This document shows positions 33,242 through 56,637 of a stretch of DNA of 64,000 bases, one piece after another. A model generated the notes under the pieces. That model saw nothing but the letters and a program-made list of their open reading frames with translations, did no database searches and was not told the DNA's origin. The DNA is from a virus. The position numbers and the translations under genes are program-made. Where the stretch lies: positions 47,272-111,271 of IMG/VR virus record IMGVR_UViG_3300045391_006990; one strand, given 5' to 3'. Each line of letters starts with the position of its first letter. Position 1 is the stretch's first letter.

Positions 33242-36200
33242 TCAAAGGTTTTCGCCTGGGCTCGCCACATCGGGAGCCATGGGAATGTCAGGTTGCATGG
33301 GTGAATCAGCGTCGTCGCTCGAGAACTCGAAGTCCTTGTCGTCAGGCTGCGCGCCGATGAGCTTCTGCCCGGCGGTGTCGCGCCTGTTGAACTTCCTGAT
33401 GGGCAGGTCTTCGCGTGCAAGGTCACGCATGCCGCTCATCAGCGTGCCCGAGTAACTCACGCCGTCTACGTTGAGATTGAAGAAAGTGCTGAACTGACCT
33501 TCGAGCAAAAGGTCGATGGCCCTGTCAGCTCCCTTTTGCCTGAAAGTCGACAGCATTACGTCCACAGGCTCGACCGCGGGCGCTTCATACAGGTCGAACA
33601 CGGCGCCGAGCTCGGTGAGCGAAGCGGCCATATCCTCGAGCAGGTTCGTTGCATCGTTGATCATGGAAGGCGTGGGGTTGGCGTTGGTCACGATGGGGTT
33701 GAGCGCGCGCGCCAGGTTTCTGAAGAAGAGCTCTTGCTGCGGCGACTGACCGAGCCAGGTGGTTGAACCGTCCTTGAGCTCGGTGTAGTTGGCCACCTGC
33801 GCGATGCGGATGCGCCCGAAGGGATTGGGCACGCCGAAGTCGAAGGTGAGGCTGAACGTCGAGGCGACAGCTGCGCTCAGCTCGAGCACCTGCAACGTGC
33901 TGTCGATGGAGACGACCTCTTGCTCGACGTCCACCACGTTGTAGCTGCCCACATAGAACTGCACGAGGTCGCCCACCGTCACGCCCGCTGGGAACGTGTC
34001 GAAGCGGATGAACTTCGTGAAGCCCTTGATGGGCACACCCACGTCGATAGGGTCCAGGAAGTAATCGGCGCCATGGCTCGTGCCTGCGTTGTCGACCGTG
34101 ATCGCAGAAACCAGCGTGGTGTCACGCGAGACGAAGCTCACGTCTTCGGAGCCGAACTCCACGTTGAACCCAATGCTCTTATTCCCGTCTTTGAAGACGG
34201 GTAGCGAGCTCTCGATGACGAGCTCGAACGAGGCCGTGGTCTTCACCAACTGGTCCTCACCAATGTAGTAGTGTCCTTGGTTGGGCCCGTCGCTGATGAT
34301 CAGCACGTCGCCAAAGCCGAAAGTCACGTCTGGTCCCACCTCGATGGAGATGGCGCCGTCGGTGACAGGCACGGGGAATGTAACGCCCAACACACCAGAC
34401 GCGATGGTGTTGATGCTGCCTTCTACTCCGATGTCAGTTGGAGTAAGGCTTGAGCGAATCACCACGCGATCTCCCAGCTGCACAGAATCAGGAACGGCGA
34501 CCGCTAGTGCGATGTTGGTTCCGCCCGTACCTAGAAGGCCGTCGCAGACCAGCTTACTCAGCACCACGCGCGTCGGGTCCGTAGGCTCGGAGCGCGCGCT
34601 ACCGACGTACTCGAAGGGGTGAAACACCACCTTGGCGCTCAAGGCAGCAGTCGAGCCCGTGATGTTGTCGACCACGGCCTGGGCTGATACTGGGCGGCTC
34701 CGCACCTCGATGCCAGGGAAGAAGCCCAGGATGGCGTGGGTCAGGTCCTGCACCCCGTCGGTGCGTGGCAGCCGAATAGCCCTCCGCTGGACCACGCTGC
34801 CGAGTTCGTCCGTGTCCACGAGCTGCAGGGCGCGCGCGGCAGGCCCCGTTTCGATGGAGTCGTCGCTCGCAGGCACAACAGGCGCCACGCCGGCGGTATC
34901 CACGTACTGGCCCAGAGGGTCGACCGCCGTGATGCCCCACGTCGTACCAGCGTTGGTCCCTGCCACCACATCGAGGTCGTCGCCCACTACAACGCCCAGC
35001 GCGTTCAGATCGCCGGCCAAGATGGTGAAGCGTGCGTTGTTGCCACCCAGGCTCGTCGTGGTGACGGGCCCGCTGTAGCGCAAGGGCACGAAGCGCTTCT
35101 GCATACGTAGCGATGAAGCACCCAGGCCTGCGTTCACCTCGGTCACGATCTGCTGGGCAGAACGTGTACCGATGGTGAGGGGAATGTCGAAAGTTGCGCC
35201 GCCCGTGTCGAGCTGCCCGAACACGATGCGCATGGCGTTGCTGTCTGCCGTGATGGCGAAGGGCTCCTGCAGCGTGCCCAAGAGCTCAGCCACGTACGAC
35301 AGGGGCAACGGGAAGTCGAAGGGCGTCCCGCCGTCCAAGGTGAAGCGGATGAGCTGATTGGCAGCCAGGATGGGGTAGGGGCCCGAGCTCGAGCTCTCAC
35401 GCACCGCTGGCACGGCCAGGTGCTGGGTGTCGGCGTAGGCCGTGGCCAAGCCCGAGGTGGTGATGAACTCGCTCGGAGCCGTGGCCGCCCCGTACTTCGT
35501 GACCAGCGGGCGCTGGGTGAGCAGGTCCAGCGTGACCGCGCGCAGGTTGTCGAGGCGGCTGTTCTCGTCCAGCGCCGCCAGGTCGTTGTAGTGGCTGTCG
35601 AGCACGTCGCGCGCGCGGCTGATGACACCCTGGGCAGCGATGCGGGGCAGGTTCAAGCTCGCAAAGTCGTCGATGGCGCCCGCCAGCAGCTTCACCCGCC
35701 TGATGAGCTCGTTCTGCTGGTCCACCAGCTGGCGCACGAGCCCTGGGATCTTCCCCCGGGCCCCACTCGGCGTGTCCACGATGGTAGCCGAGCCGTCGGC
35801 ACCCGTCTTCCTGATATTCGAGCCCGTGGCACCGAGGAAGCCGTCGAGGTTCTGGACGTAGCGTCGGTACGCTGGGACCTTGCTGATGTCGCTGAAGCCT
35901 TGGTCACGGGATGAAACAGCGGCTTCGAGCTCCTCCAGGGCGCTGCGTGCGTTGGCAAGCAGGCTGATGTCAGTGATAGGGGTCGTGAGCCTATCGGTAG
36001 CCTCCACTGCGTCGATGAGGCTTGCGATGGTTTGAGCCTGTGAATCAAGGGCATCCTGCAGCCTCTTCACCCCGAGCTTGAGCACATAGAAGGGGGCGTT
36101 GAAGTACAGGATGAAGCACCCTGCGGCGGCCTCTTGGATGTCGCTGAAGGATACGTCAATCTTCCTTTCCCCGAGAATACCCGTTGGATGTCGAACACTT

Positions 36201-36256
36201 GACCGTACAATCTTCTCGACGGCGTCCTGCACTTCTTGGTCGGTGTAGTTGCTCAT
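33242..36256 (-). CDS. large putative virion structural protein (1004 aa)
   Basis: Helical termini flanking a long Thr/Val/Gly-rich beta region with GDxxxI..G.N.G repeats. Confidence 0.6.
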   Translation of the reverse strand: MSNYTDQEVQDAVEKIVRSSVRHPTGILGERKIDVSFSDIQEAAAGCFILYFNAPFYVLKLGVKRLQDALDSQAQTIASLIDAVEATDRLTTPITDISLLANARSALEELEAAVSSRDQGFSDISKVPAYRRYVQNLDGFLGATGSNIRKTGADGSATIVDTPSGARGKIPGLVRQLVDQQNELIRRVKLLAGAIDDFASLNLPRIAAQGVISRARDVLDSHYNDLAALDENSRLDNLRAVTLDLLTQRPLVTKYGAATAPSEFITTSGLATAYADTQHLAVPAVRESSSSGPYPILAANQLIRFTLDGGTPFDFPLPLSYVAELLGTLQEPFAITADSNAMRIVFGQLDTGGATFDIPLTIGTRSAQQIVTEVNAGLGASSLRMQKRFVPLRYSGPVTTTSLGGNNARFTILAGDLNALGVVVGDDLDVVAGTNAGTTWGITAVDPLGQYVDTAGVAPVVPASDDSIETGPAARALQLVDTDELGSVVQRRAIRLPRTDGVQDLTHAILGFFPGIEVRSRPVSAQAVVDNITGSTAALSAKVVFHPFEYVGSARSEPTDPTRVVLSKLVCDGLLGTGGTNIALAVAVPDSVQLGDRVVIRSSLTPTDIGVEGSINTIASGVLGVTFPVPVTDGAISIEVGPDVTFGFGDVLIISDGPNQGHYYIGEDQLVKTTASFELVIESSLPVFKDGNKSIGFNVEFGSEDVSFVSRDTTLVSAITVDNAGTSHGADYFLDPIDVGVPIKGFTKFIRFDTFPAGVTVGDLVQFYVGSYNVVDVEQEVVSIDSTLQVLELSAAVASTFSLTFDFGVPNPFGRIRIAQVANYTELKDGSTTWLGQSPQQELFFRNLARALNPIVTNANPTPSMINDATNLLEDMAASLTELGAVFDLYEAPAVEPVDVMLSTFRQKGADRAIDLLLEGQFSTFFNLNVDGVSYSGTLMSGMRDLAREDLPIRKFNRRDTAGQKLIGAQPDDKDFEFSSDDADSPMQPDIPMAPDVASPGENL

Positions 36257-36528
36257 TTGCTGGGGTCTTTCTCGAGGCTGAAGCGTGCGGTAGGCACCTT
36301 GTACTTACCAAAAACGTCTGGGTGAAATTGGTTGGGCTGCAACCCACTTTGCAGGGCATTCTCCATGTCCTGCGCCATCTCGTCCTCGTAGGCTTTGGTC
36401 TTGATGCAGCGGACGCAGCTGACCAGGGTGTGGTCGGTGGTGCTTCGCATGAACCCGCGGTCTCGAGTCGCACCACAGACCGCGGCATTGTCCCCGTGTT
36501 TGAACCTCCAATGCATCACGTGGCTCAT
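36253..36528 (-). CDS. Zn-finger plus AxxMExAL tag protein
   Basis: H..VCG..VSCVRC..EMAQDMENAL. Confidence 0.65.
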   Translation of the reverse strand: MSHVMHWRFKHGDNAAVCGATRDRGFMRSTTDHTLVSCVRCIKTKAYEDEMAQDMENALQSGLQPNQFHPDVFGKYKVPTARFSLEKDPSK

Positions 36529-37642
36529 GTAGTGGGGTCTTTCTCAGGCATATCGATGCCGCTGAAGTATCTACGGATGGCCACGTCCAGGTCGAGGAAG
36601 GGGCCGTGATTTTCGCCCTGTTCGCCCAGCTCTTCCCACCAGACGATGATGGCGTACTCGGTGGTCTTCAGGAGGTGGCCACGCCACTCGAGGCGCCAGC
36701 CATGGGCGCGGGTGAGGTGAAGCTGCTGGTTGCGGGCGCCGATGCACCATGTAGCGGCTGCCTCGACATCGGGGAAGAGCAGGACGGTGTGCTCGACGCG
36801 TACGGCGCGCCAGGCTTTGGGCTCACCGGTCTCGGTCAGGGTGAAGACAGTTGTGCCGGGCACCAGGTCGATGATCTCCCAGTAATTGCCACGTGTGGGT
36901 TGGATGATGGCGCTCATGTACTTGCCTTTGCTGCTGCGCGTAGGAGCTCCACTTCACGGGGCGTGAAGGGGCCGTTGCCCGAGTGTTTGATGCAGGTTTC
37001 TACGGCCGTGACCAGGCTTTCCTCTTCGCCATGGACCAGGAGCTGCTTGGCCACATTGAGCTCGTGCTGTAGGAGGGAGGGGAGGGGTTGGGCAGGTGCT
37101 GTTCGCGGGCGCCGAAAAGTCATGTAGGGGGTGCTTTCCCTGAGCCTCGGCACCTAGCGCAGACGCCGTTGAACTGGGAGGGTATCGGACTTCTTGAGCC
37201 TGAGCCATGGCAGCTTTCGCACAGCTTGGGCTGGGTCAGGATGCGCATGACTTCTTGGTAGGTTTTGTCCTGCACAGCGAGGACGGGGTGCTCATGCTGG
37301 TCGAGGATGTAGACGATGTCGAACAGCTGCTTGGTGGTGAAGGGGGCCTTGGCTTGGAGCACGGTGGCCAGGGTGGTGAGGAAGTCGGGATGAACGCTGT
37401 TGGCTGGCGCCGAAGGTTCATTTTCTGGGTGGAGCGGGGTGCTCATGTATTGGTGACTTTCGTTGGGGTCTGAGGCAGAGAGAACACGAGGGAGCCAGGC
37501 TGGATGTGCTTACCGTCGACGGCGAGCTTAGCCGAAGAAGTGAGCTCGGTGCGCAGCCTGTGTTGGAGGATGAGCCAGCTGTGGCGCTCGGTGGCGTGAT
37601 TGGGGAATTTGTCGAGGGTGAAGGCAGGTAGGCGGTGCGGGA

Positions 37643-37915
37643 TCATGTTGGTCGAGCCTTCCTTGGCAGGTTCACCACTTTTTTGAGCGCGAGGGCTAGG
37701 CTGTTGTTTCGGAAAGTAGATGGCATCCTAAAATCTGTCAGCTTGGGCGCATCAGGGGTCAGAGCATCTTCCATCTTCTGAGCGATTCGGTCCTCGTGCG
37801 TGATGTTGGGTGTGAAGGGTTTCCCGTCGTAGGTGCGGCACACACCTTCGTGGCTGTGTTCCAAGTAGCAGCGTTTTTTGTAATTTGGCAGCACGAGCCT
37901 GTTCATACAACGCAT
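37643..37915 (-). CDS. AxxMExAL tag protein
   Basis: C..CYLEHSHEG.C..RIAQKMEDAL. Confidence 0.6.
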   Translation of the reverse strand: MRCMNRLVLPNYKKRCYLEHSHEGVCRTYDGKPFTPNITHEDRIAQKMEDALTPDAPKLTDFRMPSTFRNNSLALALKKVVNLPRKARPT

Positions 37916-37919
37916 GGCT

Positions 37920-38156
37920 TCAACCTAGTTTTGGCAGCAGCGCGATGCACGCAGGGCACGAGACGTTCTCGTCGTCGAAGGTGTAGAGCGGGGTCTTGTC
38001 GGAGAGGGGCGTGCCCTTCGACCAGTCAGCTCGGTACACGCCTTCAGGCAAGCCCTCTGGCTGCGCGTAGACGTAGTACTCCTTGTTCTGACAGAGGATG
38101 GTTACGTAGGGCTGCGAGGAGCTGTGGCAGGCGTGAACGACTTGCTCGGTGTTCAT
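37920..38156 (-). CDS. Zn-finger protein without the tag
   Basis: H..LC..VSCPAC. Confidence 0.55.
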   Translation of the reverse strand: MNTEQVVHACHSSSQPYVTILCQNKEYYVYAQPEGLPEGVYRADWSKGTPLSDKTPLYTFDDENVSCPACIALLPKLG

Positions 38157-38362
38157 GTGGTTGCTGCTTTCTGTAGTGCATGTTCCATGATTTCAGCGCG
38201 CTCGTCTCGGTACCGAGCAGTGCGCATGCAGCTCTTGCACGTCACCCAGTCGGCAAGCGAGGTCCACTGCACACGGCCTTCAGGGTCTTTGGTATTGCAT
38301 ACCTGCATGCGCTTACCGCAAGCTGTGGTGCGGTTCATGCCAAGGAAGAGGTGGACAGACAT
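38153..38362 (-). CDS. Zn-finger plus AxxMExAL tag protein
   Basis: H..TACG..VTCKSC..RAEIMEHAL. Confidence 0.65.
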   Translation of the reverse strand: MSVHLFLGMNRTTACGKRMQVCNTKDPEGRVQWTSLADWVTCKSCMRTARYRDERAEIMEHALQKAATT

Positions 38363-38637
38363 AGCTTCACGATCTTTTCGGTCAGCTCGTCGGTAAAGGC
38401 CCTGAAGCTGGCGACGGTACTGGGCGTGGTGAGCGACTCTTCCATCCGCTGGGCTTGGCACTCATCTGAGATCAGGCAGGCTTCGCAGTCCACGATGTCC
38501 AAGCTGCTAGAGAGGCGCGCGTCGTCGGGCAATTCACGTACCAGCTTGCCGCAGCCTGTACGAAACGGCATGTGCTGCTTGGGCGTGGGGAGCCAGTAAT
38601 GAATCACGATGAGCTGGTCGTTTTCGTCGACGTTCAT
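38335..38637 (-). CDS. Zn-finger plus AxxMExAL tag protein
   Basis: H..TGCG..VDCEAC..QAQRMEESL. Confidence 0.65.
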   Translation of the reverse strand: MNVDENDQLIVIHYWLPTPKQHMPFRTGCGKLVRELPDDARLSSSLDIVDCEACLISDECQAQRMEESLTTPSTVASFRAFTDELTEKIVKLCLSTSSLA

Positions 38638-39098
38638 GTGGTGCCTATCAGTAGCTGCCGTTGTGCGGATGGATTCCACTTCATGTGCTGCCCGGGCGGG
38701 AGGGTGAACTGCAGGATGATGAAGCCGTCAGCGCGCTTGACCATGTACTTGCGGTTCGCAAAGGACTCGTTGTACACGGTGAACTCTTCGATGCGCTCGC
38801 CAGCCGCCCACACGCGGTACACGCTTCCCGTCTCATCGACCAGCGTGGCAGCAGGGGCTTGGAGCGCTTCCTCCATCGCCTGTGCCTTACACTCGTCGGA
38901 CCTGAGGCAGGCGGGGCAGTCCACTTCCTTGAGCTTGCTGGTGAGCGAAGCGGGCTGCCGTAAGTCGTAGAAGCCAAGGCCGCAGGCTGTGTGCACGGGC
39001 CCACGCCTTTCGACGTAGTAGTGGTGCGCGGTAGGGAGCACACGAGTAGTGAATGAGCGGGCTGCCTCCGCAATCTTTTCTTTTAGCTCAGCGCTCAT
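38634..39098 (-). CDS. Zn-finger plus AxxMExAL tag protein
   Basis: H..TACG..VDCPAC..KAQAMEEAL and a C-terminal extension. Confidence 0.65.
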   Translation of the reverse strand: MSAELKEKIAEAARSFTTRVLPTAHHYYVERRGPVHTACGLGFYDLRQPASLTSKLKEVDCPACLRSDECKAQAMEEALQAPAATLVDETGSVYRVWAAGERIEEFTVYNESFANRKYMVKRADGFIILQFTLPPGQHMKWNPSAQRQLLIGTT

Positions 39099-39342
39099 AC
39101 ATGTCCGTACCGAACATCGACACGACGCCCTCGGTTGCTTGCCGGATGTTCGATTTGATGAGGGCACGCTCCATGCCCGTGGCCAGGTACTCGTCCGAGC
39201 ACAGGCAGCCAGGGCACGTTACTTCCTTGAGGCTGTTGGTGCCGCATACGCCGGGTTCAGTGCCCAGGGGTTGGCCGCAGGCTGGGATGTAGTTGGCACC
39301 GCGGGTGACATAGCAGACGGGCATGCGTACCTCCTGCAGCAT
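39088..39342 (-). CDS. Zn-finger plus AxxMExAL tag protein
   Basis: C..PACG..VTCPGC..LATGMERAL. Confidence 0.65.
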   Translation of the reverse strand: MLQEVRMPVCYVTRGANYIPACGQPLGTEPGVCGTNSLKEVTCPGCLCSDEYLATGMERALIKSNIRQATEGVVSMFGTDMYER

Positions 39343-39659
39343 TACGTAATCTCCAGCTTCTTCAGGTACTCGGCAGAGACCATGAGCTTGCTGAATTCCT
39401 TCTCGAGAAGTTCATTTGGATACAGTACATTCATGAAATCACCTGCCTCCACACCACGGTTGACGAAGTCAGGCTCGCGCAGCGAATCCTCCATGGATTG
39501 AGCCAAGGCATCGAGGTACTGGGCGGACTCGAGGCAGCTCTCGCAGTTGATGCGCTCGACCCAGCGCGTGGCGTACATATCGTGGGTGATGCGCACGCCA
39601 CATCCCGTACGCTTGCTGTCACCGTTCTTGGCGAAGTGGGAGGTGCCCTCGAACTTCAT
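39342..39659 (-). CDS. Zn-finger plus AxxMExAL tag protein
   Basis: H..TGCG..INCESC..LAQSMEDSL. Confidence 0.65.
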   Translation of the reverse strand: MKFEGTSHFAKNGDSKRTGCGVRITHDMYATRWVERINCESCLESAQYLDALAQSMEDSLREPDFVNRGVEAGDFMNVLYPNELLEKEFSKLMVSAEYLKKLEIT

Positions 39660-40012
39660 GGACCACCACCTTCCGCTGTGATCGCCAGCTTGCGTACGAC
39701 ACCATCCGAGCTCATCACGCAGATTTCGTCTGTAGTCGTGTCCATCCACAGAAAGCAACCGCTGACAGGTGCAGTGGTTGGGGCGCCCGGCAGCCAGGTA
39801 TTCGAGCTCGCGGGCAGCGGGATGGTAGGCGCGCTCTTGCCGGAGATGGTGAACACATCCGTGCGCAGCGCATCTTCCATGGACTGCGCGACGCCTTCGA
39901 GGCACGTGACACAATCCACCTCGTAGGGTGCGCTGCTGCAGAAGTCAGCCTTCACCTGACTCAAGCCGCAGAAGGTGCGCGCTCTACCTGGAGGGACGTA
40001 GCAAGTAATCAT
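39656..40012 (-). CDS. Zn-finger plus AxxMExAL tag protein with tail-fibre-like C-terminus
   Basis: C..TFCG..VDCVTC..VAQSMEDAL; AGGAG SD. Confidence 0.65.
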   Translation of the reverse strand: MITCYVPPGRARTFCGLSQVKADFCSSAPYEVDCVTCLEGVAQSMEDALRTDVFTISGKSAPTIPLPASSNTWLPGAPTTAPVSGCFLWMDTTTDEICVMSSDGVVRKLAITAEGGGP

Positions 40013-40018
40013 GGGCTC

Positions 40019-40402
40019 CTAGTAGGGTTGGAAGTCGCGCTTACGCTTGGGTGCACTCTTCAGCGTCTTGAAGTAGGTCTCGAGCGTGAGTCGATACGCA
40101 TCGAGTTGTTCGAGCCCTTCGAAGTACCACCAGTAGGCCTTGTACTCGTAGAGCACCCAGTAGGGCGGGTTCTTGTGCTCGTAGCTGACCATGGTCTGCG
40201 TCTTGGTGCGCATGCCATCAGGAAATGGGGTGAACGAGAGCACGGCAATGGACATGGCCTTGGTACGCCACACGCGGTACTGCTGGTTGGCCAGAACGGC
40301 GCCGTGCGTGCCGCGTGTGGTGTAAGGCTTGCCTTTGCCGAAGGTCAGCGCGTCCTCCATGGCTTGCGCGATTTCATCTTCGGTCAGCTCTTCCATGGTC
40401 AA
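40019..40402 (-). CDS. AxxMExAL tag protein
   Basis: N-terminal EDEIAQAMEDAL. Confidence 0.6.
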   Translation of the reverse strand: MTMEELTEDEIAQAMEDALTFGKGKPYTTRGTHGAVLANQQYRVWRTKAMSIAVLSFTPFPDGMRTKTQTMVSYEHKNPPYWVLYEYKAYWWYFEGLEQLDAYRLTLETYFKTLKSAPKRKRDFQPY

Positions 40403-40647
40403 TCCCAGTAGTAGAGTACAAGCTCGCTGGTGTGGCGTCCTTCGTGACCGAATGGGAGCTCGCAGAAGACGGTCTGCCCTTTGTTCGTGAAGTGCATGTG
40501 CTTGCAGCGCAAGTCACGGGCTGGAGTGCCTCCGAGTGCCTGCTCGAGGCGGTCTAGGGCTAGCTCTTCGTTGATCTTACGAGCCCTGCGCTCCTCGAGC
40601 TTCTTGCGCCTCCGCGCCTCGCGCTTGAAGCTGCGCGCGGTAGCCAT
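40399..40647 (-). CDS. basic protein with LDRLExAL variant tag and C2H2 module
   Basis: ALDRLEQAL..C..CELPFGHEGRH..W. Confidence 0.6.
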   Translation of the reverse strand: MATARSFKREARRRKKLEERRARKINEELALDRLEQALGGTPARDLRCKHMHFTNKGQTVFCELPFGHEGRHTSELVLYYWD

Positions 40648-40988
40648 CTACACCCCGAGCTTGAGCCTGGCTTCTTTGATGGACTCGAGCGAGATCCACG
40701 CAGGCTTACGGTACCGTGCAGTGGCAATGTCATTGCAGAACTTATGCCAAGCCTCGGTCAAGATCTTGTGCTCCGTACGTTGCTCCAAGCTGAGCCACAC
40801 GGTGCCGCGGCCTTCGGCTTGCAGCGTCTCGAGGTCGAAGCGCCCTCTTGGTGCGATGAAGCGCGAGTTCTCGTAGTTGTACTCCACCCACTTGCGCCCA
40901 ATCTTGGTGATCACGTACTCGGTAGGCTTGCCACGGTCGAAGTCGTGCTCGACGAAGACATGCTGCCCTACCTTCAGGTTGTGCTTGT

Positions 40989-41366
40989 TCATGATGCCCA
41001 CTCGAAGGCGATGCCTTCACGCTCACACATTTCAGAGAACATTCGGCGCACGGCGATACATTGCCGGTCACCAGGTTTGAGTGCCTTGCGGCACACGTCG
41101 GGGCGCTTTTCGTAGATGGAGCAACTCACTTGGCTACCGATGGAGCCACGCAGCGAGACGCACCTGCAGTCCTCACAGCCTTTGAGCGGGCCCGTCTTGT
41201 TGACCGTTGGCCGTGTACGTATCTCGCTGCGAATGACGTGCAGCTTCACGTAACGTTTGCCCAGAAGCTCTTCATCTTTGGGCGTGAGGTTGACGTAGGT
41301 GTCCTCCCAGGTAAGGGAGGTACAACAGATGCCGCACTTGCGGCAGTCAGGCTTGCGCATGATCAC
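40989..41366 (-). CDS. YkgJ-like CxxCxxCC cysteine-cluster protein
   Basis: CRKCGICC...C..L...CSIYEKRPDVCR. Confidence 0.8.
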   Translation of the reverse strand: MIMRKPDCRKCGICCTSLTWEDTYVNLTPKDEELLGKRYVKLHVIRSEIRTRPTVNKTGPLKGCEDCRCVSLRGSIGSQVSCSIYEKRPDVCRKALKPGDRQCIAVRRMFSEMCEREGIAFEWAS

Positions 41367-41822
41367 TCCAAGTGGTGAGGCCCCACGTGCTTGTAGCGCC
41401 TGAGTTCCTGCGGGGTAGCGCCAGTGAGGCGGCGCTTGGTCGCACCGGCGCTGCGCTCGCTGCGTGCCTTGTCACGGCGCCATTCTTCAGCCTCGGCTTC
41501 GGTAGCCACGTACTGCGTGGAGCCCCACGAAGGGATGTTGATTGTCCACACGGCCACTTCATGAGGGTCGTGCTGCCTTTCAGGATCGAGGTCTGCGTCT
41601 TCCTTGACCAAACCTTCGGCGATTTCGATGAGAGCTACCTCGCCGTCGGCAAAGGGCTCCACAGTGACGCTGGTCGAGCTGAACTTGGGCGCGCGCCAGC
41701 GCGGACAGTCTGCACCGTCCACACGGCTCATGTACGGATGAAAGACAGGGAAGGGCGGCGTGATGCCGTCATGCTTGCGCGCCCAGTTGAGCAGGATGCG
41801 CACAGCACGGATGAGCTTCTGT

Positions 41823-42062
41823 TCATGGGGGTTCATACGAGGGATCACTCCAGGAAATGACGGCCAGCGATGGTGTGACGCACATGTGATCAGTGCCTCG
41901 GTGGCCGCGCTTGAGGGTGCAGCGGTGCCCTTCGGATACCGACTGGCACTGGGCGGTGGCGATGGCCGCTTCGAGTCTGTCGAGCGGCGCTTCGTACTTC
42001 AGGTATTGCTGACGAGCGTGGCGCTTCTTGCGAAGCTCACGCTTCTGTTTTCGGTTTGCCAG
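41823..42062 (-). CDS. paralog of 40399-40647 with a probable CTG start
   Basis: Manual translation (M)ANRKQKRELRKK..PLDRLEAAI..C..CTLKRGHRGTDH..W; GGAGG 9 nt upstream of CTG; no in-frame ATG/GTG/TTG upstream. Confidence 0.55.
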   Translation of the reverse strand: MANRKQKRELRKKRHARQQYLKYEAPLDRLEAAIATAQCQSVSEGHRCTLKRGHRGTDHMCVTPSLAVISWSDPSYEPP

Positions 42063-42427
42063 TTGAGATGACCTCCAACTCCTGTTCTCCGGCGAACTTG
42101 TGCTGAAGCAGCGTTGGGTTGTGGTCAGGTACGTGCTGAAGATCTTCAGGCAGGTCTTCTATAGCTAGGGTAGGCTTCCACACGAAGATGAGCGTATCGG
42201 CCTGTGCGTTGTAGTGGGTCTCTACGAGTTCGCAAAGGTACAGCTTGTCCCTGTTGTCCCTCACCACCGGAGACTCGATCTTGTACCCAATCTTCTTCGG
42301 GTCGGGGTAGGCGTAGTTGCCGTCCTTGCTGTGCGCACACGACCAGTCGCCGAGTGCCATCTGCACTTCGGCTATTGAGCGGGGCAGCGTCGTAACGATG
42401 TAGTTCATTCTCCAAGACATGGGATCC

Positions 42428-42679
42428 TCACACGGGTTTGGTTTCGCTCACGATGACGGTGGGTGGGAAAAGGTCGAGCAGGTTGTACTTCTCAGCCAAG
42501 GTGTAGCTGTTTGCCTTTCGAAACTTCTGCTCTTCGCGAGCTCGTTTAGCTCGGATGTCACGCATGGCGTCCTTCAAGCTGAGCGGACCACGCAACGATT
42601 CTTCCATGCTCTGCGCCGCACGCGCTTCATCAACTACTTGCTGTAGTTCTACTGGGAGCTGTGGTTGCTTAGCAGTCAT
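42428..42679 (-). CDS. AxxMExAL tag protein
   Basis: RAAQSMEESL. Confidence 0.6.
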   Translation of the reverse strand: MTAKQPQLPVELQQVVDEARAAQSMEESLRGPLSLKDAMRDIRAKRAREEQKFRKANSYTLAEKYNLLDLFPPTVIVSETKPV

Positions 42680-43088
42680 CGATAGGGGCGAACAAGCTGG
42701 CGCGAGGCTCTGGTCTGAAGCGGTATTTGGGCTCTAACCCAATCGACTCCCGCAGCCTATTGAATTCCATGATGAGGTCGTCGAGTGCTTTCTCGGAGTC
42801 GAAGTTGGGGTCATCCAAGAAGCGGTAGATGGGGAACGGCAGGAACAGCTGCAGCCACGGTCGCGTCTCGTTGAGGCGCAGGTACAGCGCATCGTCGTAC
42901 ATGTTCATGATGCGCGCGATGTCGGCTGCGTTGAAGAAGAAATAGGTTGGGCGTTGCCAATCACCCAGGTACTGCGCTGTCCACGTACGAGCCTGTGCCT
43001 GCCCTTTATCCCACGCATAGAAGGGCACCAGCACCTTCTCCATGCGGTCTGCCAGCAGATCCTCGAATGGAAAGATGAGCTGGTACAT
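42669..43088 (-). CDS. AxxMExAL tag protein
   Basis: EDLLADRMEKVL. Confidence 0.6.
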   Translation of the reverse strand: MYQLIFPFEDLLADRMEKVLVPFYAWDKGQAQARTWTAQYLGDWQRPTYFFFNAADIARIMNMYDDALYLRLNETRPWLQLFLPFPIYRFLDDPNFDSEKALDDLIMEFNRLRESIGLEPKYRFRPEPRASLFAPIDDC

Positions 43089-43417
43089 CAGTACGGCCTC
43101 AGCTTTTTGGGAGCAACTTCACGCCGACTACGCGCGTCGTCCTCGCGCTCGAGACCAGGGAAGAACCACAAGTCTAGCTCGACTTCCATGTAGTCCCAGC
43201 CGTTTGTCTTTTCTCGGCGTACCTCAACCTCCACCATGGCCGTGTTCGGGTAACGAAAGCGAACCTCTACAGTCGACCCGAACAGACCCTTGTGCTTGCT
43301 CTGGACTTTGTACTCGCTCCAGTCTGTCCAGCCACCGAGCAGCGCCAGCTCCATGCGCTCGGCCATCAAGTCTTCAACGTCTTCGATGATGGCAGCGAGG
43401 TTGTCGAGCTTCTTCAA
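43088..43417 (-). CDS. AxxMExAL tag protein
   Basis: EDLMAERMELAL; C-terminus (VRF..EV..WFFPG.E.E) resembles that of the neighbour 43414-43902. Confidence 0.6.
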   Translation of the reverse strand: MKKLDNLAAIIEDVEDLMAERMELALLGGWTDWSEYKVQSKHKGLFGSTVEVRFRYPNTAMVEVEVRREKTNGWDYMEVELDLWFFPGLEREDDARSRREVAPKKLRPY

Positions 43418-43902
43418 AATGCACTCATCCTGATCTTGGTTGGTTTGCCATTTGCCAGCCTGCCCTCGTACGCCTCACGCACCAGCTTTTCCTTCTCGAT
43501 GCCGGGGAAGAACCATTGGTGGCGTCGTGGGCTGTACAGGCGTGAGTACTCGTCGTTGCCGGTGCCCCAAATGAGCGGGTCCTGTTCAGGCGGTTTCTTC
43601 TTGGGCACGTCGACCTTGAAGAAGCGCACCTCGATGCAAGGATTACCTGTGGCGTAGGTTCGAAAGCGCACCGCACACTTCTGCCCAACGCGGGCTAGTC
43701 TCTCCTCTCCAAAATCCACGTGGTGGTCTGAGCGCAGCGTGTACACGTGCCAACCGTTGGTGAAGAGCGATTCGGTGTGTGCCTCGGGCTTGATGATGCT
43801 GTCACGCACCATCTTGTGTAGGTAAGCCCTCAGCCTTTGGTTGTCCTTCTTCGTGACCGCCCAGCCTGGCGGGAGTCGCTTTGTCTTACGGCTTTGTGCC
43901 AC
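43414..43902 (-). CDS. hypothetical protein
   Basis: VRFR..IEVR..WFFPGIEKE shared with 43088-43417. Confidence 0.55.
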   Translation of the reverse strand: MAQSRKTKRLPPGWAVTKKDNQRLRAYLHKMVRDSIIKPEAHTESLFTNGWHVYTLRSDHHVDFGEERLARVGQKCAVRFRTYATGNPCIEVRFFKVDVPKKKPPEQDPLIWGTGNDEYSRLYSPRRHQWFFPGIEKEKLVREAYEGRLANGKPTKIRMSAF

Positions 43903-44183
43903 CTCTTCATACCCTCCTTGACGCGTACTGATCTTTCCTCGAGCGTGGCGATCAGCCTGTCGGCAGTAGCTGCGGACACGCTGTCGAGCATAAGTCGACC
44001 TCCCGAAGTGGAAGCAGCCGTAGCTGTGCCAGTGCGTAGGCTCACGTCATCCCCAATAGAACGTTGCGATGGTGGAGGCTCGGTGACGGTCAGCGCATCC
44101 TCCATAGCCTGCGCTATAGCAGCCTTCTTGTGGTACCAAGGTTGGTACTTGCGCACGTGGAGCTTCTTCTTGCGCTTACTCAA
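43830..44183 (-). CDS. AxxMExAL tag protein
   Basis: Basic N-terminus then AIAQAMEDAL. Confidence 0.6.
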   Translation of the reverse strand: MSKRKKKLHVRKYQPWYHKKAAIAQAMEDALTVTEPPPSQRSIGDDVSLRTGTATAASTSGGRLMLDSVSAATADRLIATLEERSVRVKEGMKRWHKAVRQSDSRQAGRSRRRTTKG

Positions 44184-44592
44184 TTGAGATCGAAACCTTT
44201 TTCAGCTCGATTATTGGGGTAATGCCAGCGGAGATGTGTAGGTGCTGCTTGAGCTCCGCTTCAAGCAGTACGCTACCGTCTAGGATTAGTTGAACCTTCG
44301 ACAAGATCGCTGACCCCCCTATACACGCAGGGAAGCAGATGGGTCTTACGGTACTGAGAAGTCCGTGGGCGACAGCCCATTGATTCGTGTCACGCGCGAG
44401 GGAAACCCGCGCATAACCAGCGTAGGTCACCTCATTCCCGTCAATATCCAGAAGGCTTGCTGTCATCCCTGTAGTAGGAGTCAGCGCAGCTTCCATGCGT
44501 GCGGCAGCTAAATCACACTCACGCTTTTGCTTAAGTAACGACTCAACCAACTTCCACTGGTGCTTGGCCCACCGAACCGAATTCCTCTTCAT
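44176..44592 (-). CDS. AxxMExAL tag protein carrying a tail-fibre-like domain
   Basis: AAARMEAAL then NEVTYAGYARVSL..W..ICFP pattern. Confidence 0.6.
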   Translation of the reverse strand: MKRNSVRWAKHQWKLVESLLKQKRECDLAAARMEAALTPTTGMTASLLDIDGNEVTYAGYARVSLARDTNQWAVAHGLLSTVRPICFPACIGGSAILSKVQLILDGSVLLEAELKQHLHISAGITPIIELKKVSISIE

Positions 44593-45182
44593 GGTCTGCG
44601 CAGCCGTCCTAGCCCGTAAGCCGGGCCTGTGCCATTGATCTTGCCTCCAATCAATTTAAGGGGAGGTCCGCCGTAGACTGCCGCGAATGATGCGATCTTT
44701 GCGGCGGCGCGCGCTACATCCGCGCTTATGCCATCGGCAACCACCTTCTCGAACACCTGCTCGATGTCGTCCGGCAGCTCATCGCCGTAGCTGCTGAGCA
44801 CCAAGGCCGTGTTTGCTTTGGATTCGCCAAACGCTTGCTCGAGCACGCGCCGCTCGAGCTCAGCGTAGTCCGTACGCGCCAATGGGTCGTCAACGATGAC
44901 GAGCGTACCTGGACCTCCAAGCCGTTGTGGCGTCGGCAGGCCACGCGAAGCGTACCTGTGCTCCAAGGCCATATCTTGAAGCTGGGCGTAGAAGTCGTCG
45001 AGGCGTGGGATGTACTGCAAGTTCGGCTGTGATGAACCTCTGCGCCCAGTGATTGGGCCCAGAGTTTCGAGGTCGAACGCCACCGGATCGAAGCTGAGCG
45101 CCGCCTCCATTGCGTGTGCCTGCGCATCTTCGTACGCCTTGTTGCGCCGTTGATTGCGGGTAAGTCGCTTCTGCCTACGCAT
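44589..45182 (-). CDS. AxxMExAL tag protein that is a mosaic of family A DNA polymerase motifs
   Basis: QAHAMEAAL; VAFDLET; TGRRGSSQPNLQYIPR; DYAELERRVL; RAAAKIASFAAVYGG. Confidence 0.65.
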   Translation of the reverse strand: MRRQKRLTRNQRRNKAYEDAQAHAMEAALSFDPVAFDLETLGPITGRRGSSQPNLQYIPRLDDFYAQLQDMALEHRYASRGLPTPQRLGGPGTLVIVDDPLARTDYAELERRVLEQAFGESKANTALVLSSYGDELPDDIEQVFEKVVADGISADVARAAAKIASFAAVYGGPPLKLIGGKINGTGPAYGLGRLRRP

Positions 45183-45381
45183 TCTTCCTCCTAGCCTTCA
45201 CCCGCTTGGCGTCTTCGAAGCAGGCACGAGCCTCGTCCTTGGATTTACCGGTGGCTCGCATCCAAATCTCCATCAGCGTGGACTCTCCGCTGAGTGCTTC
45301 TTCCATGTCCCGCGCTTGCTCATCAACCGAGGCGGCTCTTTGGTCCCTTGTGCTTGGGTCGGACGACAGGGGTTGTGTCAT
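45175..45381 (-). CDS. AxxMExAL tag protein
   Basis: DEQARDMEEAL; GAGGT SD. Confidence 0.6.
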   Translation of the reverse strand: MTQPLSSDPSTRDQRAASVDEQARDMEEALSGESTLMEIWMRATGKSKDEARACFEDAKRVKARRKNA

Positions 45382-45684
45382 CGTTCACCTCACGTTCACC
45401 AAGAAAGGCCTTAGCACGCAGCACGGTCTCTTGCTCACCACGCGAGATCTTGGCTCCTAAGATGCTGGTGGATTCTGGCTGCAGCTCGATGATGTGTACC
45501 AGCGCCTTGATGAGACTGGGGGCTTCATCGATACGCCAAGTCTCAGCCTTGTAGGCCTTGACCGCCCGAAGCAGCTCACGCGTGGCTTTGGTGTGGATGC
45601 GTGGTGCGCCATCTTCGAGCTCATCCGCCGCAGCTAGCGCTGCACGGATCACACGCTCCTTCAGCAGATTCACGGATGCAGTAC

Positions 45685-46575
45685 TCATTTTCTTAGCTCC
45701 AGGGATTTGACGACTTCAGGGCTCAGGTAGGGGTTGCGGGCGCAAGCATCTTCGATGAGCCGCTCCATGGCCACCTCGAACTTGCCCTTGTCGTCGCGCC
45801 CCTCGGCGCCAACAACGCAGCGGTCGCGCGGATGAAGCTGCAGCTTGGTCTCAATACGCAGGAGCCTGCCTTCCGGAAAGCTCATGGAGCTCGAGCCCGT
45901 CTGATACAGGCCTTGGTAGATGTACAGGTTACCGAGGTCTTTGTTGACGCGCTCGGCATTGGCCTTCGCTGCGGCTACATCCAAGGCGCGGGCGACGCTC
46001 GTCCTGCGACGGTCGTGCTCCCAGCGGCGCAGCACCTCAGCCGGCTTCAGCTCTTGGATCTCGATGACATACGAGGCGTAGTGCACGTCGTATTCGACCG
46101 TCTCCCAGCCAGTCTTACTCACCTCAGGCTCTGGGTGCGCCACACAGAAGGGTTGGCCAGGGGCGATGCCGTTTTGTAAGGCCCACTGCCGCCATGGCTC
46201 ATGCCACTCGTGGTCGTACTCGAAGCAGTCCCCGTCGCCGTAGCTGATGCCCAGCGCCTCCCGCAAATCCAAGTCGCTCAGCCACCAAGGGAACCACTTG
46301 GGCTCCTGCGACGCGGGCCTCAGCTGATTGCCCATGGCGTCCCATTCACCCTCGTCGGTATCCCACGCAGGGCCTTGCCCGATCTTCACCGGATGCAGGT
46401 CGTAGAAGTCACCCCAATACAGGCGGTACCATTCTCGTACCAATTTGATGCCATAGAGGTTTACGGCATCGCTGTCGTAGCGCACGGGTGGGATGAGTTT
46501 GCGCAGCTTCTTGAGCGTGCGACGCGTCTTGGTTGTAGGCACCAACGCTGCTGGAGGCACGGGCTCGCTAGGCAT
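45685..46575 (-). CDS. hypothetical protein
   Basis: Long Trp-rich ORF with WALQNGIAPGQPF; start uncertain. Confidence 0.6.
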   Translation of the reverse strand: MPSEPVPPAALVPTTKTRRTLKKLRKLIPPVRYDSDAVNLYGIKLVREWYRLYWGDFYDLHPVKIGQGPAWDTDEGEWDAMGNQLRPASQEPKWFPWWLSDLDLREALGISYGDGDCFEYDHEWHEPWRQWALQNGIAPGQPFCVAHPEPEVSKTGWETVEYDVHYASYVIEIQELKPAEVLRRWEHDRRRTSVARALDVAAAKANAERVNKDLGNLYIYQGLYQTGSSSMSFPEGRLLRIETKLQLHPRDRCVVGAEGRDDKGKFEVAMERLIEDACARNPYLSPEVVKSLELRK

Positions 46576-46597
46576 GCCATCCCACCACAACTCTGCT

Positions 46598-47476
46598 TCA
46601 CTCAAGCTTTGGCTTCTCCTTTCTTGCTGGCACACGGAAGGTCACGCCCTTGATGAACGTGGGGTCGTTGGCATCGTTGGCGAACTCGATGTCCTCGGTC
46701 GAGTCTTTGCCCACGCGCGTTGTGGTCTTGGTGAAGATGCCACAGCGCCCGCACTCCCAACTCTTCTTGTGAATGAACGGGATGTCGTCGCTGAACAGGG
46801 CTTCGAGCTCAGCCTCAGTCATTGGCTGCGTGAAGTCCTTGATCACCTGCGTCTGCTCTTCACTGTCCTTGCTTTCGCTCCAGCCGTTACAGCGAGGGCA
46901 GTACATGCCTTCAGCCTTGAACGTACCAGCGATCTGCGCCTCGAACTGACTGAGGTCGGTCATGTCGTAGCGCCGTACGATTTCAGCCTTGGGCATCCTG
47001 CGTATTTGCTCGGCAGTGGTAACGAAGATGAGCTTGGCGCGCAGGGAGGCGTAACGCACCTCGTGCTCGTTGACCAAGAAGTCGACGGTCTCACCAGCCC
47101 TTTCCGAGGCCCAGGCGCAGGCGGCATCGATAGCGCGCTCGAGGTGCTCGTTGGCCACGGCGGTGGCGTCGAAGTCTTCGAGCTCGTCATCAGTAGGCGC
47201 ATGCCCTACCGCTTGCTCGACGAGCCAACGTGGGGCGTCGGCGAAGCCCATGAACCTAGGGCTGCTCAGAAAGCGCACTGCCCTCACGTACGACTTGCGC
47301 AAGAGCTTCGTGTACGAGTCGTCGTCCTCACCACCCTTGGGCCTGGTGCCGATGCAGAGCGGAAAGCGCGAGCAGCCAAAGAAGCTGCCTTTGGCGCCGT
47401 GCCGCTCCATCATGGGCACGCCGCATTCAGGGCAGCGCACGTGCGGAAGCAGCACGCGCTGCTTGAACTTACCCAT
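46598..47476 (-). CDS. protein with topoisomerase-type C4 zinc ribbon
   Basis: CPECGVPMMERHGAKGSFFGCSRFPLC.GT; GGAGGAG SD. Confidence 0.7.
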   Translation of the reverse strand: MGKFKQRVLLPHVRCPECGVPMMERHGAKGSFFGCSRFPLCIGTRPKGGEDDDSYTKLLRKSYVRAVRFLSSPRFMGFADAPRWLVEQAVGHAPTDDELEDFDATAVANEHLERAIDAACAWASERAGETVDFLVNEHEVRYASLRAKLIFVTTAEQIRRMPKAEIVRRYDMTDLSQFEAQIAGTFKAEGMYCPRCNGWSESKDSEEQTQVIKDFTQPMTEAELEALFSDDIPFIHKKSWECGRCGIFTKTTTRVGKDSTEDIEFANDANDPTFIKGVTFRVPARKEKPKLE

Positions 47477-47485
47477 CTCTCCTCC

Positions 47486-47869
47486 CTAGCAATCTTCGTT
47501 GACGAGCACACCGCACTCGTCGCAATGGCGGTCGAGCGCTTCCTTGGTGTTACTCCAGAGCGTCATCATGTAGCCACTCAAGTAGCTGAGCCGCGGGTAG
47601 TTGGTAGCCACTGGCTCGTTCTTGAGCGCGCTTTCCATCGCCGGGGCGATTGTGTTGATGCGATGACAACGCCAACACAGGACGCAGCCGTGACTGAAGG
47701 TGTAGCCGATGATCCACGCTGCAGTAGAAAGCACTCCGCCCCATCGAATCTCTCCACAGCCAGTGCATTCCCAGCCACTGTGGTATCGAGGGGGCGGATG
47801 TACTTCCAGGCAAGGTGCCTGGGTCTTGCAATTCGGACAGCGCTGAACCGGCTTGACTTGCCGACTCAT
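47486..47869 (-). CDS. Cys-rich protein with AxxMExAL tag
   Basis: Four CxxC pairs; IAPAMESAL. Confidence 0.55.
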   Translation of the reverse strand: MSRQVKPVQRCPNCKTQAPCLEVHPPPRYHSGWECTGCGEIRWGGVLSTAAWIIGYTFSHGCVLCWRCHRINTIAPAMESALKNEPVATNYPRLSYLSGYMMTLWSNTKEALDRHCDECGVLVNEDC

Positions 47870-48888
47870 GAACTGGTCGGAGGCACGACGCGTTCTTCCT
47901 CGATTTCGATAGCGCGTTGTACTTGCTGCGTGGGCAGACCCTGCGGCAGCTTGAACGCGTCGAATTGCTCGAGAAGCTGCACGCAAGGCAGCAGCTCTTG
48001 GTAGAGCTCTACGGCCTTGGTGTGATCGCCACGCGCTTTCGCCTCGGTTGCCCCGTCCTGGAGCCTTATGGCCACCGCCATCAGGTCGTCGAGAAGAATG
48101 TACCCACCCCGGTAAGGGATGAGTCCTCGCCCAGAAGCTCCAACGTGATCGAGCATGCAATCAGAATTAGCCATGCAACGCCTACCAATACTTTCAGTGC
48201 GTCCGTCATTCGAGCCTTTCTTCCGCACCGTTGAAGCCAGGCTCGCCCGTAATGGGGAACCTCACTCCGACGAGTCGTCTTCTTGTAGCTGCGCGCCTAG
48301 CACCACTTTGGGCAGCGCAGGAGCCCGCAAAGCATCGGGCGGTACCGCCATTTCAGGCGGCGGGTTTGAAGAGATGGGCGATAGAGGCGGGGATGGCCAG
48401 GTTGGGTGGTCCTCTGGCGGCTCCGGGGCTGGCTGCCCAACCAGCGTCTTGTCGTCCTCTTCATTCAGTTGGTTCATCGATCCCGTTGACTTGGTACTGC
48501 TCGGCCATCTCCGAAGCTTGCCGCATCAATTCCTTGGCAGCCGCGTGGCCCATGATGATGCGGTAGTTGCCCACCACTGCCTTCAGCACGAGGCGAAGCG
48601 CAGCAAGCTGTACGAGTGTCGAATCCACTTCGCCGGCGATGATTTCTGTCAGCTCGGACTTCAGCTTGCTCGCGAGTATCAGCACCCGATCTTCGGGAAC
48701 GTCTTCGAGCGCCTGCTTGCGCTGCCACTGCGGTGGCTTCGGGTCGAGAACATCTCCCATCGCGGTTCTTATACCTCCGACGTCCGAGAGTATTACGCCC
48801 GCCCGTTCGAGCAACGTGAAGGAATGTCCAGTGGTGCATCGAGCGCGAGGGATCAGTGTGCCCCCACCGGCAAACGAAAGGGAAGATC

Positions 48889-56283: not shown

Positions 56284-56637
56284 TTCTTCACCAGGTCTTT
56301 CGTCAATTCGTCTTTCAAGTAAATGTCGGTGTGGTTCCACTGCGACTCGAGCGAGCTCCACTGAACAGAGAAACGCCCTACGTCTTCGCTGTCGGATGGG
56401 CTGCGTTGTGTACCAACCAGGATGATGGTGCCTCGCGCCACCTGTACCTGGTTCACGTCTTCGTCCAGCAGTGCGCCTTCGAGCTCCTCGAGCATCTCGC
56501 ACGAGAGCGGCATCTTGCCCGTGCACTCAGGAGGCTGCGAGCAGACCTTGTCCGGTACTGGAGAGGTCCGCCCGCACATCTTGCACACGAAGAGCTGCTT
56601 GCCGCTCGGCGAGGTTGCGTACAGCTCAACCCACCTG

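Follow-up and report, generated by a model that had tools for sequence, protein, structure and literature searches.

A short peptide motif shared by diverse small proteins, and a candidate docking helix, in a gene array of an uncultured giant phage

The stretch of DNA analysed here, called the window, comprises 64,000 nucleotides (positions 47,272 to 111,271) of the virus record IMGVR_UViG_3300045391_006990. It is the final 64 kb of that 111,271-bp record (genome G000), which has a CheckV completeness of 58%. The window holds an array of small genes, many of whose products carry one eight-residue peptide of the form A-x-x-M-E-x-(A/S/V)-L, hereafter the tag. We describe the array and the proteins that carry the tag, follow both into related genomes, and weigh a portable docking helix against other explanations of the motif.

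Results

The array and its tag carriers

All array tags lie inside a co-directional block of about 35 tightly packed genes on the minus strand (36253..48814). The block has a frame signature in which GC content at third codon positions exceeds that at second positions (GC3 > GC2), neighbouring genes are mostly joined by ATGA-type start/stop overlaps, and no convincing strong intrinsic terminator was seen within it. A six-frame regex scan with the pattern A..ME..[LIVM] returned 17 matches, all on the minus strand between 36,352 and 47,647 and exactly one per carrier protein, with none in the remaining frames or the remainder of the window. These are the 17 strings listed by an earlier, sequence-only reading, each of them present in its open reading frame (ORF), together with the two LDRLExA(L/I) variants that it had added. 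Its statements that the tag occurs once per protein, often follows acidic residues (at positions -4 and -3) and is not seen elsewhere in the window were likewise borne out. The other 47 kb of the record contain a single extra match, AQEMEDSI (plus strand, genome position 9402), in a replication-module ORF.

Seventeen matches are far above expectation. From amino-acid composition, 0.15 would be expected in the 34 array proteins (Poisson p ~4e-29, our own estimate), and 5000 per-protein shuffles gave a mean of 0.14 and a maximum of 3, so that the enrichment over shuffled proteins that the sequence-only reading depended on is present.

Every carrier follows the same layout of a head, then the tag, then a variable tail. 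Three kinds of head are found: a zinc (Zn) ribbon in eight genes, an Arg/Lys-rich leader in about five, or a short acidic stretch. Many carriers are basic (isoelectric point, pI, 9-11). When the array proteins were compared by BLAST with the tag masked, just three small groups were connected. Genes are named below by their lower coordinate, and all are on the minus strand.

The largest group combines a Zn ribbon with the tag. Its eight members are paralogs with the pattern [H/C]...C-G...C-x-x-C, and the tag follows 7 or 10 residues on. They are encoded at 36253..36528 (91 amino acids, aa; AQDMENAL at 36352-36375), 38153..38338 (61 aa; AEIMEHAL at 38174-38197), 38335..38637 (100 aa; AQRMEESL at 38431-38454), 38634..39098 (154 aa; AQAMEEAL at 38862-38885), 39088..39342 (84 aa; ATGMERAL at 39160-39183), 39342..39659 (105 aa; AQSMEDSL at 39480-39503), 39656..40012 (118 aa; AQSMEDAL at 39866-39889) and, in a Cys-rich protein of the Zn-ribbon type, 47486..47869 (127 aa; APAMESAL at 47624-47647).

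The second group joins the tag to a common C-terminal beta domain that ends in W-F-F-x-G-L-E...P-Y. It comprises gene 43088 (43088..43417, 109 aa; AERMELAL at 43340-43363), its paralog 43414 (43414..43902, 162 aa), whose tag has decayed to EAHTESLF (43762-43785), and gene 40019 (40019..40396, 125 aa; N-terminal tag AQAMEDAL at 40346-40369), whose C-terminus resembles the family weakly (W-x-F-x-G-L-E ... P-Y end).

The third group is formed by the two mutual paralogs with the LDRLE variant, both with an Arg/Lys-rich leader: gene 40399 (40399..40647, 82 aa; LDRLEQAL at 40534-40557, Cys/His-rich tail) and gene 41823 (41823..42032; LDRLEAAI at 41961-41984). The latter has no ATG, GTG or TTG ahead of its LDRLEAAI motif, while its ortholog in a relative (G001, introduced below) starts with ATG, and relative to the upstream gene 42037-42420 (stop at 42037-42039) its frame is -1. 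An odd start codon, access by frameshifting, or decay of the gene could account for this.

Seven carriers have no relative in the array. They are gene 37643 (37643..37915, 90 aa, Cys/His-rich, with a central tag AQKMEDAL at 37760-37783), gene 42428 (42428..42679, 83 aa; AQSMEESL at 42593-42616), gene 42669 (42669..43088, 139 aa; N-terminal tag ADRMEKVL at 43029-43052), gene 43830 (43830..44183, 117 aa, pI 11.2, Arg/Lys-rich leader; AQAMEDAL at 44091-44114), gene 44176 (44176..44592, 138 aa, basic leader; AARMEAAL at 44482-44505), gene 44589 (44589..45182, 197 aa, Arg-rich leader; AHAMEAAL at 45096-45119) and gene 45175 (45175..45381, 68 aa; ARDMEEAL at 45292-45315). The sequence-only reading had called the carriers unrelated. 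This stands for these seven, but not for the eight Zn-ribbon paralogs, the beta-domain trio or the LDRLE pair.

The place of the tag within the protein had been described as N-terminal, central or C-terminal. Across the 17 carriers it starts at 10-84% of protein length (at residue 10-30 in nine and at residue 42-75 in eight), which agrees with a variable position, but it is never at the extreme C-terminus within the window.

Library searches gave little. None of the 19 carriers reached the curated threshold of a Pfam family (four sub-threshold hits scored 13-16 bits against cut-offs of 27-34), PHROGs returned no credible match (one marginal, phrog_30413, E 0.009), and seven carriers and P0070, a Zn-ribbon protein described below, had no match in NCBIfam. 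The literature searched holds no description of the motif, and the earlier statement that no described system uses this tag agrees with these Pfam, PHROGs, NCBIfam and literature results.

Constraint on the peptide

Codons at the fixed positions of the tag are mixed: Ala-1 is encoded by GCG/GCC/GCT/GCA in 6/5/3/3 tags, Glu-5 by GAG/GAA in 9/8, and Leu-8 by four different codons. Since synonymous codons vary where the residues are fixed, selection acts on the peptide and not on a DNA repeat, as the sequence-only reading had held. An element that acts at the nucleotide level and is translated only incidentally (a recombination site, an RNA structure, or an internal start plus ribosome-binding site) would be compatible with the ATG found in every tag and with the purine-rich GAG/GAC codons upstream. 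However, four codons are used for the Ala, both available ones for the Glu and four for the Leu, the acidic codons end about 15 nt ahead of the ATG, too distant for a ribosome-binding site, and relatives conserve the residues ahead of the Met at the amino-acid level. We give this explanation next to no weight, and internal translation initiation at the tag ATG is ruled out by the same conservation of the upstream residues. Judged from these sequences, the tag is a peptide-level module kept by strong selection.

With its surroundings the motif reads [DE][DE]-[YF]-x-A-Q-x-M-E-x-A-L-x-x-P. On a helical wheel, A1, M4, E5 and L8 and the acidic residues at -4 and -3 would fall on one face, with the variable positions 3 and 6 opposite.

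The invariant Glu recalls a processing site, and the sequence-only reading had offered cleavage by a head protease as one option. The head-protease motif of phage SPN3US is A-X-E (PMC7411985). Three residues ahead of the Glu, the 17 tags have D, K, I, R, A, G or S; this residue is S, A or G in 9/17 (Ala in 5/17, Arg in 4/17), which does not agree with (A/S/G)-X-E, and Leu or Ile only once, which does not agree with (L/I)-x-E. In the wider family of 57 tags described below the corresponding counts are 30/57 for S/A/G and 12/57 for Arg, and Met occupies P2 in 56/57. A site serving purely for recognition and cleavage by a phiKZ/SPN3US or T4 type protease, parting head from cargo and involving no docking, would explain the invariant Glu and the small residue three positions ahead of it in about half of the tags. 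It fits poorly with the frequent Arg at that position (12/57 in the wider family, 4/17 here), with the Met fixed at P2 and four more conserved positions flanking the Glu, among them the A-L beyond it, and with the location of the site within what is confidently predicted to be a helix. Nor did G001 and G003, two complete relatives, give a match to a protease gene with PF03420 or PF04586, although the S77 control was also matchless. A pure cleavage site is therefore, in our judgement, very improbable.

Predicted structure and the Zn-ribbon family

Two carriers were modelled with AlphaFold2 (AF2), and the tag is helical in both models. In gene 38634, residues 1-80 have block-mean values of the predicted local distance difference test (pLDDT) of ~90, with one block at 70, while the tail past the Pro has low confidence. 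The model shows an N-terminal helix, beta hairpins, the CxxC at 61-64, and helices at 62-66 and 68-80, the tag lying inside the last of these, just past the CxxC. In gene 43088 the tag sits in an N-terminal helix (residues 5-26) with a pLDDT of 48-62, followed by the beta domain at 70-79. No significant structural match to the Zn-ribbon model was found in the PDB (Foldseek, best E 0.68; VIA wide, Z <=2.3). The best hits in BFVD (E 0.02) were uncharacterised phage proteins, and the ESM Atlas returned only low-score unnamed viral clusters.

A 50-position profile was then run against 1.84 billion representative proteins, yielding 90 proteins at E <=1e-3. Among them, 54 small proteins (54 clusters at 50% identity) have a CxxC, then 7 or 10 residues, then the tag. 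Their 57 tags keep A1 in 56, Q2 in 40, M4 in 56, E5 in 57, A7 in 51 and L8 in 54, and Pro is frequent at +11. Across 11 Zn-ribbon sequences C-G and C-x-x-C are invariant, with His or Cys upstream. The unit of Zn ribbon and A-Q-x-M-E-x-A-L is a well-defined new domain family, and in its eight array members the 'tag' is the last helix of the domain, not a free-standing tag on unrelated proteins.

The unit also appears in other combinations. Tandem pairs of tagged units occur in P0070, P0071 and P0077, and two tags in one protein suggest multivalent binding. In P0107, P0127 and P0134 the unit is fused to a DnaJ-type finger, and P0135 combines it with a separately tagged homolog of gene 42428. Zn ribbons without a tag exist as well: gene 37920 in the array (37920..38156, 78 aa), which ends six residues past its CxxC, the middle unit of P0070, and the eight-repeat P0078. 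Together with the tags on proteins that have no ribbon, these show that neither ribbon nor helix requires the other. Large metagenomic proteins (P0078, P0082, P0104, P0119) carry 3-8 tandem untagged HY...ACG...CxxC Zn ribbons, and the ribbon seems to be an older, more widespread module, to which the helix was joined in the phage clade.

These data bear on an explanation in which the tag has no common partner at all. It would be the core of one diversifying lineage-specific family, spread by duplication, head loss and fusion, with the helix kept for the stability of a treble-clef-like Zn fold or for self-association. Eight carriers are clear tandem paralogs, the spacing from CxxC to tag is fixed at 7 or 10 residues, ribbon and helix are modelled together with high confidence, and small residues at positions 1 and 7 would suit tight helix packing; the copy number also differs between close relatives (17+2 in G000 against ~12 in G001), as expected under duplication. 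On the other hand, untagged Zn ribbons exist, and the helix is found with no ribbon attached in at least seven proteins for which no similarity to the rest of the array could be detected, as well as on a cupin enzyme and ahead of a paralog of an untagged gene (both described below). In the beta-domain protein it forms a low-confidence N-terminal extension, and fixation is no weaker at the polar Q2 and E5 than at the hydrophobic positions. On balance we hold this explanation, the main rival to docking, to be rather unlikely.

Diversity of the cargo

Three carriers indicate what the tag can be attached to. Residues 38-137 of gene 44176, its tail, share 33% identity (tblastn E 1.6e-12) with an untagged 142-aa gene on the minus strand at G000:C1:16120-16563, a weak member of the Gp80 fibre-protein family. 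The first ~35 residues of this 142-aa paralog are replaced in gene 44176 by the basic leader and the tag. Past its tag, gene 44589 runs colinear with the phage's own family-A DNA polymerase (PolA, L001:3436-5553) over the polymerase residues 413-467. The common motifs, TGR..SS.PNLQ followed by DY..LE.R.L, are weak (pairwise E 0.018), and the G001 and G002 orthologs of 44589 keep the Arg-rich leader, the tag and the PolA-like motifs. Its product could be a decoy or regulator of the polymerase.

The third case lies in G001, far from the array: a cysteine-dioxygenase-like cupin protein of 251 aa (phrog_4786, E 1.8e-29) has a perfect tag at its C-terminus. It is encoded on the minus strand at G001:C1:5631-6383 (L056:2631-3383) and ends in DDVAAKMEQALTP. 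This is the only tag observed on an enzyme-like protein and the only one observed at a C-terminus. With a fibre paralog, a polymerase-like fragment and a cupin enzyme as cargo, we infer that the tag acts as an address and not as an active part.

Relatives and conservation of the tag

The region and the 1004-aa protein next to it (below) had no match by megablast or tblastn among 50,697 phage records, and the PolA is less than 30% identical to that of any cultured phage. A scan of IMG/VR with a DNA pattern for AQxMEDAL returned 36 single chance matches and one true array, that of G001. Applied to prokaryote genomes, this pattern returned 120 single matches and no array; two loci with a double regex match encode unrelated proteins. 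G001 is a 195,580-bp genome with direct terminal repeats, rated complete, and its array is syntenic and has about 12 tags.

Orthologous carrier pairs of G000 and G001 keep 4-7 of the 8 tag residues, whereas identity is 22-47% over the remainder of these proteins and 47-83% for the untagged neighbours. Evolution at the locus is therefore fast in the carriers, with the tag as their fixed point. Conservation in homologous genes, which the sequence-only reading needed, is hence found in the G001 orthologs, where the tag is kept while the flanks diverge. For gene 47486 the identity to its ortholog is 65%, and the ortholog has the tag ARSMEIAL. For the decayed tag of gene 43414, the ortholog has an intact AARMEAAL, and tags evidently undergo gain and loss. 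M-E is kept in 12/12 members of the beta-domain family, with E invariant, and A..ME in all ARM-family homologs.

More distant relatives differ. Searches of G002-G006 with the tag and Zn-ribbon profiles found nothing convincing. Where the 1004-aa protein is only 47-50% identical, the Zn-ribbon-tag family is absent, and tag-like helices with a different ending occur on other small proteins. Position 8 is L in 17/17 tags of G000 and in 11/12 of G001; it is I or F in all eight tags of G003, mostly after K, R or T, and I or V in four of the five tags of G006. Two families of orthologs show this shift as well, with MEAKF against ME-x-AL in the beta-domain family and AKIMERKI against AQAMEDAL in the ARM family. 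A shared receptor would be expected to cause such clade-specific drift, concerted among different proteins.

The earlier proposal of an amphipathic helix that docks on one partner stands in part: AF2 predicts the helix, and the clade-specific versions fit a shared partner. No such partner was found, and the docking itself would follow only from these patterns.

A tag-like motif, A-x-x-M-E-D-x-I, is also found in a 241-aa coiled-coil ORF (G000:C1:8925-9650, plus strand; L001, outside the window) downstream of a Cas4-like nuclease and a UvsX-like recombinase, and is present in 6/8 related genomes. It is possibly an endogenous counterpart of the array tags, and possibly a chance match. A pattern in which the replication-module motif co-varies with the array tags at position 7 is broken by G006 and is not relied on.

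Neighbouring genes

The last array gene is overlapped by 4 nt by the start of a beta-rich ORFan of 1004 aa (33242-36256, minus strand). Its G001 ortholog is 65% identical, and it has at least 59 metagenomic homologs, many on 186-203 kb contigs with terminal repeats, so it is a good marker of this uncultured giant-phage clade.

Scattered through the block are untagged genes of a more ordinary kind, which are better conserved than the tag carriers. The untagged Zn ribbon 37920 is 68% identical to its G001 ortholog, above the value for the tagged paralogs. Two untagged genes adjoin at 40648-41360 (minus strand), with identities of 61% and 83% to the G001 orthologs. A phage ProQ C-terminal-like domain (PF24203, E 1e-13) is present in one, and the other encodes a CxxCxxCC (YkgJ-type) protein. 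A DnaJ-type CXXCXGXG finger protein and a Top1-type Zn ribbon are further untagged members. Elsewhere in the window, a 408-aa thymidylate-synthase-like protein (55300-56526, minus strand), whose PHROG match spans only residues 80-315, may hint at modified pyrimidines in the phage DNA.

Comparison with known systems

The closest concept to the tag is the capsid targeting sequence (CTS) of phage T4. The internal-protein loci of T-even phages are hypervariable, and the CTS peptide is common to diverse small proteins and to the enzyme Alt (PMC3012670, PMC7411985). The propeptides of the T4 internal proteins (IPs) and Alt measure 10-20 residues; those of SPN3US head proteins measure 111-130 residues and have a proposed targeting role (PMC7411985). 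The likeness to the CTS lies in clustered fast-evolving genes that share one short peptide, found also on an enzyme, with the peptide serving as an address. The CTS differs in being confined to the N-terminus, with a length of ~10-20 residues and the gp21 site (L/I)-x-E at its end, whereas the phage tag can be internal or C-terminal, has another sequence and keeps conserved residues past the Glu. The phiKZ/SPN3US propeptides resemble it in that a giant phage uses an invariant Glu within a short motif on several proteins, with long N-terminal segments proposed to target the prohead (PMC7411985). They differ in that Met is fixed at P2 of the tag, and the tag carriers are small (60-200 aa), with Zn ribbons or Arg-rich leaders.

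Capsid loading of the T4 CTS type could accordingly be envisaged: the helix would bind the prohead scaffold or core, and the carriers would be packaged and ejected with the DNA, their signal possibly cut after the Glu. This explanation has the closest precedent, in the T4 IP/Alt and SPN3US propeptides (PMC7411985). Many carriers are basic (pI 9-11), with Arg/Lys leaders that could bind DNA; the tagged enzyme of G001 parallels Alt in T4; the array is translationally coupled to the conserved beta-rich 1004-aa protein; and the N-terminal tags are short acidic, hydrophobic helices. Against this, the tag is non-N-terminal in half of the carriers, agrees with neither (L/I)-x-E nor A-x-E, and conserves an A and an L past the Glu that a removed signal would not need. 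In G001 and G003 no match was found to Peptidase_S77 (PF03420, gp21-like), for which the control likewise matched nothing in any genome, or to the S78 head protease (PF04586), for which the controls did match. The untagged neighbours are ProQ-like, YkgJ-like and of the Top1-Zn-ribbon type, not head genes. We regard capsid loading of this type as improbable.

Three further systems share parts of the logic. Encapsulin cargo-loading peptides and the encapsulation peptides of bacterial microcompartments are short amphipathic helices, attached through a poorly conserved linker to either end of a cargo, that dock on a shell. No shell or compartment gene is known in this phage and the sequences of these peptides are unrelated to the tag; the resemblance is one of logic only. 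In T4, clamp-binding C-terminal peptides of gp43, gp33 and gp55 dock different proteins on one hub. These peptides are C-terminal, aromatic and few, whereas the phage tag is an acidic Ala/Met/Leu helix with 17-19 carriers, and the tag-like motif of the replication-module protein is the sole link from the tag to replication in such a comparison. Lambda N-type antiterminators have an Arg-rich N-terminal motif that forms an RNA-hairpin-binding helix. About five carriers likewise start with an Arg/Lys-rich leader followed by a helix, a likeness known from leader composition alone, but there is no detectable homology and the leader is just one of three head kinds.

Discussion

The explanation that we favour, to which we would give a probability of roughly 0.45, is that the tag is a portable docking helix addressing diverse cargo to one receptor. 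Mechanistically, a helix of 12-14 residues would sit between an N-terminal head and a variable C-terminal cargo, and its conserved face (A1, M4, E5, L8) would dock every carrier on a common receptor, a phage or host protein. The docking would gather fast-evolving accessory proteins, such as the fibre paralog, the polymerase-like fragment and the cupin enzyme of the relative, at one place. The receptor might be a hub of phage or host inside the cell, or it might be the core of the prohead. To name the untagged Zn ribbon 37920 as the receptor would be speculation, and this gene is absent from G003, which has tags.

Several observations weigh against such a docking helix. No receptor for the tag was found. 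In the Zn-ribbon group the helix stands at a fixed spacing from the CxxC and is modelled with a pLDDT of ~90 as part of the domain, and with this spacing and this confident model, part of the conservation of the tag could be structural. The difference between clades rests on two or three lineages with small counts, and shared ancestry could explain it; position 7 is moreover inconsistent, the array tags of G006 having A, T or S and the tag-like motif of its replication protein R. The 20 flanking ORFs, which might have pointed to early or late expression, gave almost nothing against PHROGs.

The concept of a shared targeting or docking peptide is known. What is unusual here is its position independence, the 17-19 carriers within one operon and the clade-specific versions. 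A stronger form of the docking proposal, which we consider doubtful, is that this is a previously undescribed address-tag system. An uncleaved 12-residue helix at any position would then direct 15-20 cargo proteins to one receptor, among them an enzyme and fragments captured from the phage's PolA and fibre proteins, receptor and tags would drift together so that every phage lineage has a tag version of its own, and the Zn-ribbon-tag unit would be dedicated to the system.

Whatever its function, the Zn-ribbon and A-Q-x-M-E-x-A-L unit merits a family model. If the tag is indeed an address label, it would give a handle on about twenty 'dark matter' genes in a widespread clade of uncultured soil giant phages, and it might serve as a small portable tag for delivering foreign proteins to its receptor, be that the capsid, a replication factory or a host machine. 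It would also mean that phages outside the T4 group steer changeable accessory proteins via a shared peptide.

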